A stretch of DNA of 64,000 nt from Bacillota bacterium (GTDB lineage Bacteria > Bacillota > UBA4882 > UBA10575). The position numbers and the translations under genes are program-made. How positions within the stretch are numbered: the first letter of the stretch is position 1; each line of letters starts with the position of its first letter. Location: the NCBI GenBank assembly GCA_012727535.1, contig JAAYGU010000104.1, positions 5,269 through 69,268 on the forward strand. Reading direction: 5' to 3'. The notes beneath the pieces are model-generated. The model did not search any database. It was not told the origin of the DNA and saw only the letters and a list, made by a program, of their open reading frames with translations. Positions 5,955-61,968 of the stretch are shown here, in pieces.

Positions 5955-6225
5955 GTTCTCTCTGTAGCTTGCTTCCGCCTGCCTATTATCAAGATCCGGC
6001 GCTTTTACCCTAATGCGCCGGGGAGCATCCTGGCCAGCTTGTTGGCAGTGGAGCTCGCGGTGTCAGCAGTAAGTAGAGCAAGGCCCGAAGGAGGATTAAG
6101 CGCACAATAATACTTGTGTATATCGAGTACCGCCTGGACTGGGCAACGCCGCTATGCGCAGCTGATCACGGCGTCTGGCAACAATCCGGCAAAGATAATT
6201 TGCTGTCTCCAGCTTGCTCGAAGCC
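5955..6225 (-). repeat. Copy A of the recurrent structured intergenic element (minus-strand orientation)
   Basis: The reverse complement aligns block by block with 50527-50795 and 60043-60283. The arms 6175-6192 and 6031-6048 pair at 15/18 positions. The tail hairpin CCGGCGC/GCGCCGG lies at 5996-6021. Confidence 0.75.
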
Positions 6226-27787: not shown

Positions 27788-29212
27788 ATGACGACCTGGG
27801 CTATACAAGAGCAAAAAGTTGCCGCGGATGGCAGACGCCTCTATCTAGTCACCGATTCCCAGGGTGGCAAGTACTTATGGGAGCCACTCAATCTGACTCT
27901 CTCTTCGAAAGAACGACTTTTTGTTGAGCTACTGCGAGAGCTTAAATCGCTAATCAATCAACCGATTGACATCAATGGCCAGCTTCAGCTCATCTGTTAC
28001 GAGGGAGTGGATAAGTATCAGGATGAATATTACCTACGGATTGGTTATGCCGAAGAACTCTGGACGAACTGGCCACGCAAGGGAGAGAAGCGCTATGCTT
28101 TACCGGAAGTGGCTACCGCAGCCCTTGGCCTGGTAGAATTCACGCAAACGGTTTTTGACATGGACTGTTCTTTTGCGGGCTTTTTCCCGGGTGATCTGCT
28201 TCCACTAGGGGGAGAAAGCTGGGGACTGCTGGATCCACGGGTACAAAAGCTGTTAGCACCGTATCGTGACGGTGAAGCAATTCGAGAATATTACTTGCCT
28301 CCGGAAGTGATCGCTGGAGCTGAATGGACGAAGAAGTCGTATCTGTATACGGTAGGGCTGACTTTATATACCTTAGCTACAGGGGTTTTTCCCTTTCCTT
28401 TAACTAACCGACGGGAGACCGTGACGGCAATTTTAAAAGAAGAACCGTTAGACCCCAGGTATTGTCGGGAAGAGATCGGAGAAGAATTTGCCGGCTTAAT
28501 TTTAAAACTGATGAAAAAGAAAGAGGAAGACCGGCCGGATATTGCTGAGGTGACTAGAGAGCTTGAGCGGATGCGTATGGAGCAAACTTTAGCAGCTGCT
28601 CCGGCAGAAAGGGAAAAAGTAAAAGAGCGGGCGGCCTTGATGCGCCGGAAAGTTGAGCAACGACGGAAACGTTATTGGTGGTGGCAGCGTGGCAAATGGC
28701 CTCTGGCGATAGCAGCAGTGGTTCTGATTTTTGTCATACTGCTTTCTCGGGGTAATTATGAGGAGAAAATTACTCCGGAGACGACACCCAGTGAAGTGGT
28801 TGCGGTCTTTTATCAAGGTTTTGCCGAACTTGATACCATGAAACTAGAAGAACCCCTGATGAAAGGGGTGGGTCAGGAATTTGTTAAAATGGTAAGTTTT
28901 ATGCATGTTACTTCGAAGATGCGCCAGGCGTATGAATTTATTAAAGTACCCTTTCTAGTGCTGGAGGAGTTAAAGATAGAAGAAGACTCGGCCTCCTCAC
29001 CGGAAAAGCCGGTTTTCCATTCGACCTATCGTCTGAAGATGCTGGAGGGACAGAATTATCAGATTCAAGAACGTCGCGACCGGTTGGTCTTAACCCGTTG
29101 GAAAAAGGAATGGCGGATCGCGGAGTTGGAATCTATTGTTTTGGAGGAAGGAATGGAGCCGGTAATGGGGTTTGCGCCCGGGGATGTTCTGGAGGAACCG
29201 ACGAAGCCCTAA
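27788..29212 (+). CDS. Membrane-anchored Ser/Thr-kinase-like protein with degenerate catalytic motifs (probable pseudokinase)
   Basis: The kinase C-lobe is recognisable (LPPEVI, SYLYTVGLTLYTLATG, EDRPDI). There is no Gly-rich loop; HRD is replaced by FAG and DFG by LDP. One TM helix (WPLAIAAVVLIFVILL) precedes an extracytoplasmic tail. Confidence 0.6.
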   Translation: MTTWAIQEQKVAADGRRLYLVTDSQGGKYLWEPLNLTLSSKERLFVELLRELKSLINQPIDINGQLQLICYEGVDKYQDEYYLRIGYAEELWTNWPRKGEKRYALPEVATAALGLVEFTQTVFDMDCSFAGFFPGDLLPLGGESWGLLDPRVQKLLAPYRDGEAIREYYLPPEVIAGAEWTKKSYLYTVGLTLYTLATGVFPFPLTNRRETVTAILKEEPLDPRYCREEIGEEFAGLILKLMKKKEEDRPDIAEVTRELERMRMEQTLAAAPAEREKVKERAALMRRKVEQRRKRYWWWQRGKWPLAIAAVVLIFVILLSRGNYEEKITPETTPSEVVAVFYQGFAELDTMKLEEPLMKGVGQEFVKMVSFMHVTSKMRQAYEFIKVPFLVLEELKIEEDSASSPEKPVFHSTYRLKMLEGQNYQIQERRDRLVLTRWKKEWRIAELESIVLEEGMEPVMGFAPGDVLEEPTKP

Positions 29213-50526: not shown

Positions 50527-50795
50527 AGGCTAGAGCAAGTGGAGAGAGGATGAATTTGCCGGATGGTCGGCAGGCGGCGTGATCAGCGGCGCATAGCGTC
50601 GTTGCTCGGTGCGGGCGGTGCTCGATATGGCCGATTATTATCTGCGCTCCGTCCTCCCTCGCGCCTAGCTCTGCTTGCTGCTGACGCCGCGAGACGAATC
50701 TGTGGGTTAAGTTGACAACCATCCGGCAAGGGTGCTCCCTGGTGCGCTGGGGTGATAGCGCCCGGTTTGGGAATGAAGTTGGCAGTAAAATGTAA
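50527..50795 (+). repeat. Copy B of the recurrent structured intergenic element
   Basis: The 5' arm 50556-50573 pairs with the 3' arm 50711-50729 (12/12 for the outer part). The core is GCGGTGCTCGATAT...TATTATCTGCGCTCCGTCCTCCCT...CGCCGCGAGACGAATCTG. The tail hairpin lies at 50739-50765. Confidence 0.8.
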
Positions 50796-50901
50796 GGTTT
50801 ATTTAATAAATGTTCGGTGGGATTTTGTTCGTAAGTTCAAGATGGCGTATTGTACATAAAAGGACGTAATAATCGACGGGTGATAAAACAAGCAAGGTTT
50901 T

Positions 50902-50943
50902 GTGAAATCCATCGACGAGCTGCGAACTGCGAGTACGAGGAGG
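50902..50943 (+). promoter_or_regulatory. GAR-heptad leader module abutting the pepF SD
   Basis: GTGAAATCCATCGACGAGCTGCGAACTGCGAGTACGAGGAGG. GAG/GAA triplets at 50917, 50924, 50931, 50937 and 50940. Confidence 0.5.
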
Positions 50944-58297: not shown

Positions 58298-59512
58298 ATG
58301 CGCTTTTTAACTTCCGGTGAATCTCATGGCCAGGCGTTGGTTGCGGTGATCGAAGGTTTTCCTGCTCAGGTTAGAATAACCAAGGAAGAGATCGATCGCG
58401 AGCTCGCCCGGCGACAGATGGGCTATGGACGCGGGGGACGAATGAAGATCGAATCTGATCAAGTAGAGATCCTTTCCGGAGTACGGCAGGGGTTAACCAT
58501 TGGTAGCCCGATTTGCTTACAGATTTCGAACCGGGACTGGGTGAACTGGTCTTCAGTTATGGCACCGTTTCACCAGTCCATACCGGAGGAGGTTGTGATT
58601 AAAGAAGATCCCCGCCTCCCGAAATTGACGACGGTAGTTACCGTACCACGCCCTGGTCATGCTGACCTGAGTGGAGCTTTAAAGTATGGTTTTACTGATC
58701 TACGTAATATTATCGAACGCGCGAGTGCGCGGGAGACGAGCGCCCGGGTAGGGGTTGGCGCTTTCGCGAAACAGTTGTTGAAAGAGTTCGGGATTCGCAT
58801 TGGCAGTTATGTTCTTTCGATCGGGAAGGCGGGGACCGGACCGGTTCAACCATTGACCCCTGACCAGCAGGAGCAGGTTGACCAGTCACCGGTGCGGGCC
58901 TTTCCTCCGGAAGCGGCGGAGGAGATGATCCGCATGATTGATCAAGCCCGCCAGAACCAGGAAACACTGGGGGGAACATTTGTGGTCTATGCAACTGGTT
59001 TATTACCCGGACTCGGTTCTCATGTCCACTGGGATCGGCGGTTAGACGGACGCCTGGCTCAGGCGGTCATGAGTATTCCTGCGATCAAGGGTGTCGGGTT
59101 TGGTGCCGGTTTTAAAACGGCGGCTTTTCCCGGTTCTCAGGTGCAGGATCCGATTACGTATTCGCCGGAAATTGGTTTTCGGCGGACCGGGAATAACGCG
59201 GGCGGAATTGAAGGGGGAATGACGAACGGAGAACCCCTCGTTTTGACCGCGGTGATGAAGCCGATTCCTACGTTATATCAAGGTTTGCCAAGCGTTGATC
59301 TTAAAACTCTGGAACCAACAAGGGCGGGTGCGGAACGTTCTGATTTGACAGCGGTTCCGGCAGCCGGAGTAGTAGCGGAAGCGATGGTTGCTTGGGTTTT
59401 AGCCGAGGCTGTGCTCGAGAAATTTGGGGGCGATTCGCTTCCCGAAATTAAACAAGCTTGGCTTGGCTATCGGGAGGGATTGCGTGGAAAAGCAAAAGGG
59501 GGTAAGTGCTAA
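58298..59512 (+). CDS. aroC: Chorismate synthase
   Basis: N-terminus MRFLTSGESHGQALVAVIEGFPA, plus GRMKIE, RPGHAD and SARETS. Confidence 0.95.
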   Translation: MRFLTSGESHGQALVAVIEGFPAQVRITKEEIDRELARRQMGYGRGGRMKIESDQVEILSGVRQGLTIGSPICLQISNRDWVNWSSVMAPFHQSIPEEVVIKEDPRLPKLTTVVTVPRPGHADLSGALKYGFTDLRNIIERASARETSARVGVGAFAKQLLKEFGIRIGSYVLSIGKAGTGPVQPLTPDQQEQVDQSPVRAFPPEAAEEMIRMIDQARQNQETLGGTFVVYATGLLPGLGSHVHWDRRLDGRLAQAVMSIPAIKGVGFGAGFKTAAFPGSQVQDPITYSPEIGFRRTGNNAGGIEGGMTNGEPLVLTAVMKPIPTLYQGLPSVDLKTLEPTRAGAERSDLTAVPAAGVVAEAMVAWVLAEAVLEKFGGDSLPEIKQAWLGYREGLRGKAKGGKC

Positions 59513-60035
59513 TATTTTCCTGATCGGGATGATGGGTAGCGGTAAGACGACAGTTGGGAAACTGCTCGCCGAGCATCTGGACAGGGAGTTTATCGATACG
59601 GACCAGATGATTACGGAACAAACAGGGCTGACCATCCCTGTTATTTTTAAAGAAAAAGGAGAGCAATACTTTCGCCGGTTGGAACAAGAAGTGATCGCCG
59701 GGGTGGCCCGACGGAGGGGGGTGGTCGTGGCCACCGGTGGAGGTGCTATAATTGTACGGAAAAATCGCCAGGTATTGAAGGAGAATGGCCTGGTTTTTTA
59801 TTTAAGGGTAGCAGCGCGGGTGTTGGCCGAGAGAGTGGGTGCCGGTGAGGGACGACCGCTGTTGGCTGGGAAGAGGCTGGTTACGGAGTTGGAGAAGTTG
59901 TTGGCGGTCAGAGAAGAGTATTACCAGGAAACAGCGGATGTGGTGCTGGAGACCGATGAGCTGATAACGGAGGAAGTGGTGGAGGCGATTATTAAGGAGT
60001 GTAGGAGTAGAGGGGTCTTGGGAGGGTGGCTCTGA
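59484..60035 (+). CDS. aroK: Shikimate kinase
   Basis: P-loop NIFLIGMMGSGKTTVGK. In-frame GTG 59484 follows CGGGAGGGA and overlaps the end of aroC. Confidence 0.88.
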   Translation: MEKQKGVSANIFLIGMMGSGKTTVGKLLAEHLDREFIDTDQMITEQTGLTIPVIFKEKGEQYFRRLEQEVIAGVARRRGVVVATGGGAIIVRKNRQVLKENGLVFYLRVAARVLAERVGAGEGRPLLAGKRLVTELEKLLAVREEYYQETADVVLETDELITEEVVEAIIKECRSRGVLGGWL

Positions 60036-60042
60036 AGGGCAC

Positions 60043-60283
60043 GATGAAGCGATGAGTGATGAGGATCGAGATTATTTGCCGGATGATCGGCAGGCGGCGT
60101 GGAAAACTTCGTAGAGCTGCGTTCTAGGTGCGAGCGGTGCTCGATATACGCGAGTATTATCTGCGCTCCGTCCTCCCTTGCACCTTGCTCTACTTGCTTC
60201 TCCCGCCGCGAGTCGAATCTGGGAGAAATCTGCCGACCCTCCGGCAAGGTGCTGCCCGGCTAGGTAAATGCTTGCCAAAGAGG
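60043..60283 (+). repeat. Copy C of the recurrent structured intergenic element, inside the aro operon
   Basis: The 5' arm 60076-60093 pairs with the 3' arm 60230-60247 at 16/18 positions. By hand count, about 76 of 88 core positions are identical to copy B. It lacks the tail hairpin. Confidence 0.8.
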
Positions 60284-60290
60284 TCGTTCA

Positions 60291-60400
60291 CTACGAGTAA
60301 TGAACGACGAGGGGTAGTTGAACACGAGCGTGCACAACGAGCGGAGAACTGTTAATAGCGTGTGTGAAACCGAACGACGAGCTGCGAGTGCGAGGAGGGA
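60291..60400 (+). promoter_or_regulatory. ACGAG-rich / GAR-heptad leader module abutting the aroB SD
   Basis: Six ACGAG motifs, ending in CGAACGACGAGCTGCGAGTGCGAGGAGGGA. GAA/GAG triplets at 60372, 60379, 60386, 60392 and 60395. Confidence 0.5.
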
Positions 60401-60406
60401 CAACAG

Positions 60407-61513
60407 ATGGGGGTTGAACGGGAGCTCCGGGTGAAGGCTGGGACTCAGGAGTATCCAATATTTTTAGGGACTGATCTCTTGGTCAAGAGTGGTAAGCTTC
60501 TACAAGCGGAAGGTTTAAAGGAAAAGGTGCTGGTGGTAACCAACCCAACAGTGGCCGGGTTGTACCTTGACTTATTGCTGCAGGGACTTCAGCGGGAAGG
60601 CTTTAAGCCGCAGGTGGTAATGATTCCCGATGGGGAGGAGTATAAGCAGCTTGCTCAGTTGGAACAGGTATATGATGCGGCGGTGGCGGCCCGTTTAGAA
60701 CGTGATTCGACCATCATGGCGCTTGGGGGCGGCGTGATCGGAGATTTAGCCGGTTTAGCGGCGGCTACTTATTTGCGAGGGGTACAGTTCGTGCAGGTTC
60801 CTACGACGCTGCTGTCGCAGGTAGATAGTTCAATCGGGGGGAAAGTAGCAGTTAATCACCGGGAAGGAAAGAATCTGATCGGCGCTTTTTATCAACCAAG
60901 AGTGGTGATCAGCGATCTGAATGTTATTTCTACCCTGGACGAGCGGGAGTTTAAATCAGGCCTAGCCGAGATAATTAAAGCCGGGTTGATCGGAGATCCG
61001 GTTCTTTACGATCTACTATTAACAGAAAAAGCTGCGATAAAAGCCCGGGCGGCTGATGCTTTATTAAGCGTTATTGAACTTGCTTGCCGGTTTAAAGCGC
61101 GGGTGGTCGAGGCGGATCTTTTTGAACACGGGGGACGGGCGGTGTTAAACTACGGACATACGATTGGCCATGCCTTGGAAGCGGAGACTGTTTACAGTGA
61201 TTATCGTCATGGTGAGGCGGTTGCCATCGGGATGAGGGGAGCTGCCTTTCTCAGTGAGGAGCTAGGTCTTTGCCCACCGGAGATAAGCCGGAAAACCACA
61301 GAACTTTTGCAGATCTATAATCTACCGCAAAACTTGCCGGAGATTCCGGCTGCGCGTCTACTGGCGCGTATGGAAATGGATAAGAAAATCAAGGAAGGGA
61401 AGCTCCGTTTCGTCCTGACCAAAGGGATCGGCGAGGCAGTGCTGAAAGACGATCTCCAGCCGGAGTTGCTCACTAAGGTGTTATGGCGGCTGGGAGCGGG
61501 GAGGGGAGAATAA
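60407..61513 (+). CDS. aroB: 3-dehydroquinate synthase
   Basis: [44 protein letters not shown], plus metal ligands in NYGHTIGHA. Confidence 0.95.
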
Positions 61514-61518
61514 AAAGG

Positions 61519-61968
61519 ATGAAAATTTTGGTGCTTCACGGACCTAACCTCAATCTCTTGGGAAAACGCGAACCGGAGATTTATGGGCGGACCACGCTGG
61601 AAGAGATCAATGCACAACTCTTAGCGTTAGCCAAGGAATTAAATGTAGAGTTGAAGATGGTACAGACTAACCATGAAGGAGTAATGGTTGAGCAAATTCA
61701 ACAAGCCGCCGAAGATTGTCAGGGAATTTTGATCAATCCGGCGGCTTACACCCATACGAGTGTGGCGATCCGGGATGCGTTAGCCGCGGTTAACTTACCG
61801 ACAATCGAGGTTCATCTCAGCAATATCTATGCCCGTGAGGAGTTTAGGAGAGTCTCGCTTTCCGCTCCAGTCGTAACCGCTCAAATCTGCGGCTTAGGAG
61901 CCGAAGGGTATCTTTGGGGATTAAAAGCCCTGGTGCAAATGGTCCGGCAGGAATCCAGATTTAAGTAG
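61519..61968 (+). CDS. aroQ: Type II 3-dehydroquinate dehydratase
   Basis: [33 protein letters not shown] and EVHLSNI. Confidence 0.93.

Follow-up and report, generated by a model that had tools for sequence, protein, structure and literature searches.

A structured, MITE-like repeat as a probable insertion in the aroK-aroB junction of a Bacillota bacterium

In a Bacillota bacterium (assembly GCA_012727535.1), the gap between the shikimate kinase gene aroK and the 3-dehydroquinate synthase gene aroB holds a full copy of a structured intergenic repeat, here termed copy C. The stretch analysed, referred to as the window, comprises 64,000 nucleotides (nt) and is located on contig C66 of the 2.23 Mb, 150-contig genome. 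On balance, copy C is best explained as a partly decayed, mobile and non-coding intergenic repeat that resembles MITEs (miniature transposable elements with inverted repeats) and that inserted into a formerly tight aroK-aroB junction, as an ordinary insertion rather than a dedicated regulator.

A covariance model of the repeat (R1) places copy C at positions 60075-60249, with a score of 178.2 bits (E 3e-48). An earlier note on this DNA described the gap as consisting entirely of the element and an ACGAG-rich module. Both are present, but the gap also contains a purine-rich tract at its 5' end (60044-60071) and a further small repeat (60252-60311), the latter matching C92:23582-23641 and C121:12134-12190 by blastn at 78-79% identity. 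Purine-rich flanks of a similar kind also occur ahead of other copies of the repeat. Copy C is a somewhat decayed member of its family, with two mismatches in the closing helix (P1), loss of the second hairpin and a score of 178 bits, as compared to 215 bits for the best copy. No Rfam 15 family, T-boxes and riboswitches included, matched at the gathering threshold anywhere in the window, and a permissive search of 59900-60500 yielded only two chance matches to long non-coding RNAs (E above 3). Coding by the short open reading frames (ORFs) in the gap was rejected, as the copies differ by 1-2-nt insertions and deletions and covary as helices.

Matches to the spacer were found by blastn in approximately 40 places in the 2.2 Mb genome, comprising ~13 full and ~25 partial copies, while the R1 model recovered 13 full copies plus fragments (23 hits). 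Contigs C2 (end, 28799-28977) and C35 (start, 1-135) of this assembly (G000) break within the same repeat copy and share identical sequence there. As the repeat breaks the assembly at this point, the true copy number is probably above the count. The 11 full cores aligned from the genome itself (alignment A1, 86% mean column identity) fold as one long imperfect hairpin of 50 pairs. In a second alignment, comprising 39 copies from this and related genomes and used for the analysis of covariation (A2), 91% of the cells are paired and compensatory changes on both sides are evident in 40 of the 50 pairs. None of 500 column shuffles matched the observed values, and sliding the partners by one to three columns left 34-45% pairing. 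On the given strand the rod includes several G-U or U-G pairs, and a score of ~24 bits for the reverse strand contrasts with 215, so the fold is strand-specific, as expected for an RNA. The family is thus a well-supported structured repeat without an Rfam entry.

The conserved fold comprises a rod of ~175 nt with a closing helix of 16-18 bp, the arms of which (P1) form the terminal inverted repeats of the window's family, a large internal loop that is conserved in sequence, an apical hairpin and, usually, a second, GC-rich hairpin of 7 bp. In distant copies this second hairpin directly follows the core and its stem covaries (CCGGCGC/GCGCCGG, CCGACGC/GCGUCGG and CCAGCGC/GCGCUGG). The middle loop is conserved in sequence, whereas the termini vary and only their pairing is kept. 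One copy (G000:C123:14252-14478) carries an unrelated insertion of ~65 nt in the 3' strand of the rod and a second one (C80:2819-3086) extends over 268 nt; insertions within the rod are evidently tolerated. Three further interpretations of the structure were considered and dropped. A family-wide link between the internal loop and the flanking GAG heptads, suggested by CUCGCUCGGUCG loops in distant copies, had no consistent partner. A K-turn does not agree with the bulge sequences, nor a 6S-like RNA with the copy number.

The order aroC-aroK-aroB-aroQ is kept across the class. As the earlier note had described, the operon is tight with a single large gap, a layout with which the Pfam-assigned genes and the starts supported by Shine-Dalgarno (SD) sequences agree: aroC and aroK overlap by 29 nt (with the aroK start at 59484 picked by its SD), aroB and aroQ are 5 nt apart, and the 371-nt aroK-aroB gap (60036-60406) is the outlier among the operon junctions. 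When homologous spacers were compared in 25 relatives with aroK upstream of aroB, 21 had a gap between -41 and +68 nt, from an overlap to a short spacer, and the remaining four one of 116 to 230 nt, marking the spacer as an intrusion into a tight, conserved operon. In the one further species of this genus, whose aroB is 85% identical, the aroK-aroB spacer measures 194 nt, lacks the core and is non-homologous except at the start of aroB. The absence of the core from this spacer and the short junction in most relatives together identify copy C as an insertion. The same-genus spacer nonetheless still ends in GCGACGAGGAGG before the ATG, so that the SD-proximal 'CGAG' leader is independent of the element. 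This spacer (L054, G001:C108) carries a long perfect hairpin of its own (CCAGCCGACGCCAAATGCTGTTC...GAACAGCATTCGGCGCCAGCT), and three other relatives (L057, L069 and L070) have unrelated aroK-aroB spacers of 116-230 nt. Judged by these sequences, the aroK-aroB junction is a recurrent insertion site.

A second locus is likewise found in filled and empty states. In a species of a sister genus (G018) the gap measures ~520 nt and contains the element with extra modules, while the corresponding gap is ~13 nt in four of its congeners and ~105 nt in another (G016); two others were unresolved. Orthologous copies of copy C were not found by exact-protein lookup, and a metagenome scan gave no aroB closer than 69% identity.

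The clearest signature of transposition comes from a distant subfamily. A complete 3.7 Mb genome from another family of the phylum (G197) contains 13 full copies of ~158 nt each, 91-100% identical, with a perfect 15-bp terminal inverted repeat (GTTCAAAAAGTCCAT) and a centre that has GCGTTGCTCAGTC and CTTCGCGCCTTGnACTnCTTGCT in common with the window's family. On either side of 12 of the 13 copies lies a perfectly duplicated 5-bp AT-rich target (TTAAA, TTTAA, ATATA, TATAA and TACTA), a transposition signature which makes this subfamily MITE-like. In two of the five copies from a sister genus (L257 and L260; G011:C2:20013-21392 and G011:C18:24416-25793), a 30-40-nt direct repeat of the 5' end of the element (...TTGCCGGATTCTTTG...) is found again ~400 nt downstream, so that the two occurrences enclose the unit as a whole, which hints at site-specific or copy-choice insertion rather than simple cut-and-paste.

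Within its own genome the repeat is strongly oriented. Of the copies in co-directional gaps, 23 are in sense and one is antisense (two-sided binomial ~3e-6), with a further ten copies in convergent gaps and four to five in divergent ones. Copies in convergent gaps almost always lie nearer to their co-oriented gene. Different-subfamily copies placed tail-to-tail (+ then -), ~170 nt apart, occur in the larger genomes of the class (L034, L037 and L039; G040:C5, G031:C44 and G031:C59); such pairs would be expected if two convergent genes each had one of the copies joined to their 3' end. Full cores begin 13-94 nt past the upstream stop codon in 12 of 13 cases, behind housekeeping genes that are unrelated to one another, coding for SecY, an ABC permease, an HD protein, a class-V aminotransferase, IlvC, DnaK, a pterin-binding enzyme, PdxS and a GH57 branching enzyme. 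The element is present in 29 of 41 related genomes and 15 of 20 genera, with a patchy distribution of 0 to 19 copies per genome, as counted with stricter filters than in the search of the genome itself (19 hits there for this genome, versus 23). The congener of the same genus has one copy and several members of the family have none. Among 301 sampled genomes of the phylum, strong matches were restricted to the class, and weak ones (35-48 bits) occurred in five other families. The named carriers are 'Bacillota bacterium' metagenome-assembled genomes from anaerobic digesters and one 'Hydrogenispora sp.' (genus incertae sedis at NCBI).

The earlier note had proposed that copy C sequesters the aroB SD at long range, through pairing of its CU-rich core. 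On recheck the pairing was exact: TCCTCCCTTGCAC (60171-60183) and GTGCGAGGAGGGA (60388-60400) align over 13 positions, with ten Watson-Crick pairs, two GU pairs and one mismatch. The equivalent pairing proposed for copy B, between TCCTCCCTCGCGC (50652-50664) and GTACGAGGAGG (50933-50943), also holds over 11 positions (seven Watson-Crick pairs, two GU pairs and two mismatches), with the register beginning at the third base. The strength of such pairing was evaluated with RNAduplex, in which a 21-nt core was paired with positions -30 to +3 of the downstream gene and the null consisted of that core paired with each of the genome's 1279 strong-SD genes. The duplex of the copy C core with aroB reaches -26.6 kcal/mol, as compared to -14.4 +/- 4.0 kcal/mol for the null, and ranks first of 1279. 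The genome's eight other copies that have a downstream gene on the same strand lie at percentiles 0.25-0.64, with copy B, at 0.25, at chance level, and nine copies from same-family relatives range from 0.08 to 0.83; the element thus occurs repeatedly without the complementarity, an outcome that the earlier note had named as refuting its proposal. Both CCGUCCUCC and the CCUCC tract are conserved only within the local family (f1), and in other families of the class CCUCC is absent, with CCGUCCUCC replaced by, for example, CCUCGCUCGGUCG. Copies between convergent genes retain CCUCC though no gene lies downstream. The complementarity in copy C is therefore real and unusually strong, but sequestration fails as a property of the repeat family, given that the 17 other copies are at chance level, that CCUCC is kept where there is no downstream gene and that it is lacking in the distant subfamilies. 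The conserved function of the element does not lie in SD pairing, which may nevertheless act in copy C alone.

Exaptation of this single copy, whereby copy C would lower aroB translation by occluding the SD and so set the aroB-aroQ output apart from that of aroC-aroK, is conceivable but unlikely. Two routes may be envisaged, via the CU block (60171-60183) or, in a fold that replaces the rod, via the copy-specific CCCUCC at 60237-60242. The rank of the core/SD duplex speaks for it, as do several features of the folded spacer. In the unconstrained ensemble, the SD (60394-60399) pairs with 60237-60242 with a probability of 0.77, forcing the CU-block/SD helix of the earlier note costs only 2.4 kcal/mol, SD accessibility is 0.11-0.24 with the element as opposed to 0.49-0.61 without it, and the competing rod is weakened by copy C's two mismatches in P1. 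Folding of the spacer nevertheless gave little occupancy to the helix that the earlier note had put forward, the pairs between the CU core and the SD summing to 0.39 over 12 pairs, or ~3% occupancy, and the 3' half of the CU block is buried in a 9-bp internal helix of the rod. The mean unpaired probability of the SD is 0.62 with the rod enforced, 0.61 for the leader alone and 0.24 in the free ensemble; with the rod in place the SD is thus as open as in the leader by itself. The rod should form before the SD is transcribed, since it is complete ~150 nt ahead of SD synthesis. Moreover, the effect is found in no other copy, orthologous copies for a conservation test were not found, and the CCCUCC tract is a single substitution away from the subfamily consensus, as drift in a decaying copy would give. 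When eight copies were folded with and without the element, SD accessibility was clearly lower in two, unchanged in three and higher in two. Minimum free energy (MFE) predictions over 400 nt are unreliable and the fold of the + strand has a z-score of 0.02.

A role in mRNA processing or stability would draw on the rod itself rather than on the SD. The rod may be cut by an RNase III-type enzyme or may block 3' exonucleases, such that aroC-aroK and aroB-aroQ differ in half-life, and such a role could be what keeps the family in sense behind genes. RNase III cleaves the Correia elements of Neisseria. The long and nearly continuous helix conserved by covariation, the strictly sense placement just past stop codons and the presence of copies within essential operons, for example after secY, speak for a role of this kind in the present repeat. 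The bcr1-bcr3 repeats of Bacillus cereus provide a further analogy, bcr3 being correlated with the decay rate (PMC3446304). However, the sequence offers no recognisable cleavage-site motif, the proposal is plausible by analogy, and the young copies of the G197 subfamily show only a weak orientation bias. A processing module is considered quite unlikely as the explanation of copy C.

The family may alternatively represent an uncatalogued structured RNA module, acting for example through protein binding at the conserved loop to control decay or translation of adjacent cistrons, with copy C recruited as a two-state anti-SD device which tunes aroB-aroQ. In such a device the SD would be open when the rod is formed and closed when the 3' arm is released. 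This would explain both the strict sense orientation and the persistence of the repeat across a bacterial class. As a joint proposal on the family and on copy C it appears improbable.

The spacer is also long enough, at 371 nt, to accommodate an internal promoter that would make aroB-aroQ a separate transcription unit, and copies B and C8 are trailed by a TGnTATTGT-like module. Yet a consensus scan for intrinsic terminators and for promoters of the sigma-70-like type alone found neither on the + strand from 59300 to 60700, and the TGnTATTGT-like module is missing from copy C. This is the least probable of the explanations. Since there is no promoter-like or terminator-like site on this strand, read-through from aroK is the simplest assumption. 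The module shared by copies B and C8 (window 50780-50900; G000:C8 ~5960-6060) ends in ATGsCGTATTGTACATAAAAGrACG, the TGnTATTGT within it resembling an extended -10 element, and might act as a promoter that travels with the repeat. In the aroK-aroB gap the repeat has, to either side, arrays of GAG with a 7-nt period, in which CGACGAG and CTGCGAG are examples of the unit. Of 68 such arrays, 37 are intergenic, as compared to 16% of the genome; they are co-oriented with the downstream gene in a ratio of 31:5 and often abut the SD. One possibility is that the GAG array is a protein-binding leader motif.

Under the insertion hypothesis, copy C would most likely be transcribed through, in sense, within an aroC-aroK-aroB-aroQ mRNA, and aroB would be translated from its own strong SD (GGAGGG), set in a leader rich in purines, of the 'ACGAG/GAG-heptad' type that is common in the genome. 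The insertion would incidentally abolish any translational coupling between aroK and aroB and, by analogy, would separate the halves of the operon by a long double-stranded RNA, a plausible substrate for RNase III. That the CU block is complementary to the SD region is traced to two sources. The CCUCC bulge is inherited from the local subfamily, and the UGCGAG unit of the leader happens to equal the 5' strand of the rod, GUGCGAG (60128-60134). As CUUGCAC pairs within the rod with AGGUGCGAG (60126-60134), the GUGCGAG of the leader is identical to the rod's own 5' strand.

Several observations weigh against an ordinary insertion. The copy C duplex is the best of 1279 and retains a value of ~0.015 after correction for 18-19 copies, which is hard to dismiss as chance, and copy C has two separate anti-SD tracts. 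The unconstrained ensemble leaves the aroB SD mostly paired (unpaired 0.24), with an MFE 11 kcal/mol below that of the rod-enforced fold. The ends and target duplications of the window's own subfamily are not definable, its flanks being repeated modules, and no parent transposase or insertion sequence was found, as the terminal-repeat pairs in G197, G160 and G120, three genomes of one family, are all 128-273 nt apart, with none spaced by kilobases; in the genome of the window itself the search for a parent was a loose scan of the arms and too noisy to use. The strong sense orientation and the internal loop conserved across families suggest some function of the family at the RNA level, transcription through the element is only inferred, and the gene calls behind the context analysis are crude ORF calls of our own.

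The coordinates of the features described are given in Table 1. Aside from the four aro genes, Pfam assigns a secretin-LysM gene, comFB and a LacI-type gene in the window.

Table 1. Features of the aroK-aroB region and of related repeat copies (window positions unless another source is named)
Feature	Position	Strand	Basis or remark
aroC, chorismate synthase	58298-59512	+	Pfam PF01264, E 7e-116
aroK, shikimate kinase, SKI domain	59484-60035	+	Pfam PF01202, E 4e-49
Purine-rich 5' flank, four exact heptads (GATGAAG, CGATGAG, TGATGAG, GATCGAG)	60044-60071	+	Read from sequence
Copy C core, rod-like imperfect hairpin, 47 of 50 consensus pairs realised	60075-60249	+	R1 model, covariation, pair mapping
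5' arm of closing helix P1, GCCGGATGATCGGCAG	60078-60093	+	Pairs with 60230-60245; copy-specific mismatches U-C and A-C
CU block; UCCUCC (60171-60176) forms a 6-nt bulge in the rod, CUUGCAC pairs with 60126-60134	60171-60183	+	MFE, unpaired probabilities
3' arm of P1, CTGCCGACCCTCCGGC, holding the copy-specific CCCTCC at 60237-60242	60230-60245	+	Consensus is CTGCCAACAATCCGGC
Small repeat module replacing the second hairpin of the family; includes 8-bp hairpin GTCGTTCA...TGAACGAC	60252-60311	+	blastn
ACGAG-rich leader, five ACGAG and two GCGAG	60295-60393	+	Read from sequence
aroB Shine-Dalgarno, GGAGGG	60394-60399	+	7 nt ahead of ATG, read from sequence
aroB, 3-dehydroquinate synthase	60407-61513	+	Pfam PF01761 and PF24621
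aroQ, type II 3-dehydroquinase (DHquinase_II)	61519-61968	+	Pfam PF01220, E 1e-59
GAG arrays in the window	60044-60071, 60370-60397, 50910-50943
Copies in G197 (L232-L235, L240-L250)	G197:C1, e.g. 2194069-2194236

In annotation, the aroK-aroB spacer should be described as a repeat insertion and not as a shikimate-specific leader or riboswitch. The structured repeat, with 40 of its 50 pairs compensated, occurs in uncultured Bacillota from digesters, in at least 15 genera, and has distant cousins elsewhere in the phylum. A conserved middle combined with termini that need only pair is unusual for a MITE, and the single orientation inside essential operons (after secY, dnaK and aroK) provides a natural test case for the effects of long mRNA hairpins on processing and translational coupling. 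Should the pairing of copy C prove functional, it would represent a mobile repeat converted into a translational regulator.

Translational riboswitches and RNA thermometers, as anti-SD leaders, share with copy C a CCUCC-type tract complementary to the following SD, of which copy C has two. Such leaders, however, pair locally and are conserved among homologues, whereas the partners here are 150-220 nt apart, the rod competes for them and the pairing is absent in 17 other copies. Correia/NEMIS elements in Neisseria and ERIC elements in enterobacteria are MITEs which are co-transcribed with genes and can affect processing and expression (PMC3184786). Like the present repeat, they are 100-170 nt in size with terminal inverted repeats, occupy intergenic or intercistronic sites and form long hairpins in mRNA. 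They differ in conserving their termini and in occurring in both orientations, where the present family has a conserved centre, termini that are conserved in pairing only and a 23:1 sense bias in its own genome, and no integration host factor (IHF) site or promoter was recognised here. The closest known counterparts are bcr1-bcr3, ~155-nt repeats of the Bacillus cereus group which are flanked by 5-bp direct repeats, have no transposase of their own, are transcribed in untranslated and intercistronic regions, and retain their RNA fold through compensatory changes, with the structure lost with age (PMC3184786, PMC3446304, PMC6542083); bcr1 also has plasmid copies (PMC6542083). By sequence, the present family does not appear to be a member of bcr1, as neither subfamily was matched by blastn in 72,556 PLSDB plasmids including B. 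cereus bcr1 carriers, an indirect test. The fold also differs, a single long rod with a second hairpin here and a two-armed cruciform in bcr1-bcr3, as do the target, which is TWWWA-like here and a TTTAT motif there, and the host range, which spans several families of a class and beyond as opposed to one species group. What the two have in common is their size class, the 5-bp duplications (in the G197 subfamily), the covariation and, in copy C, the decay of the copy.

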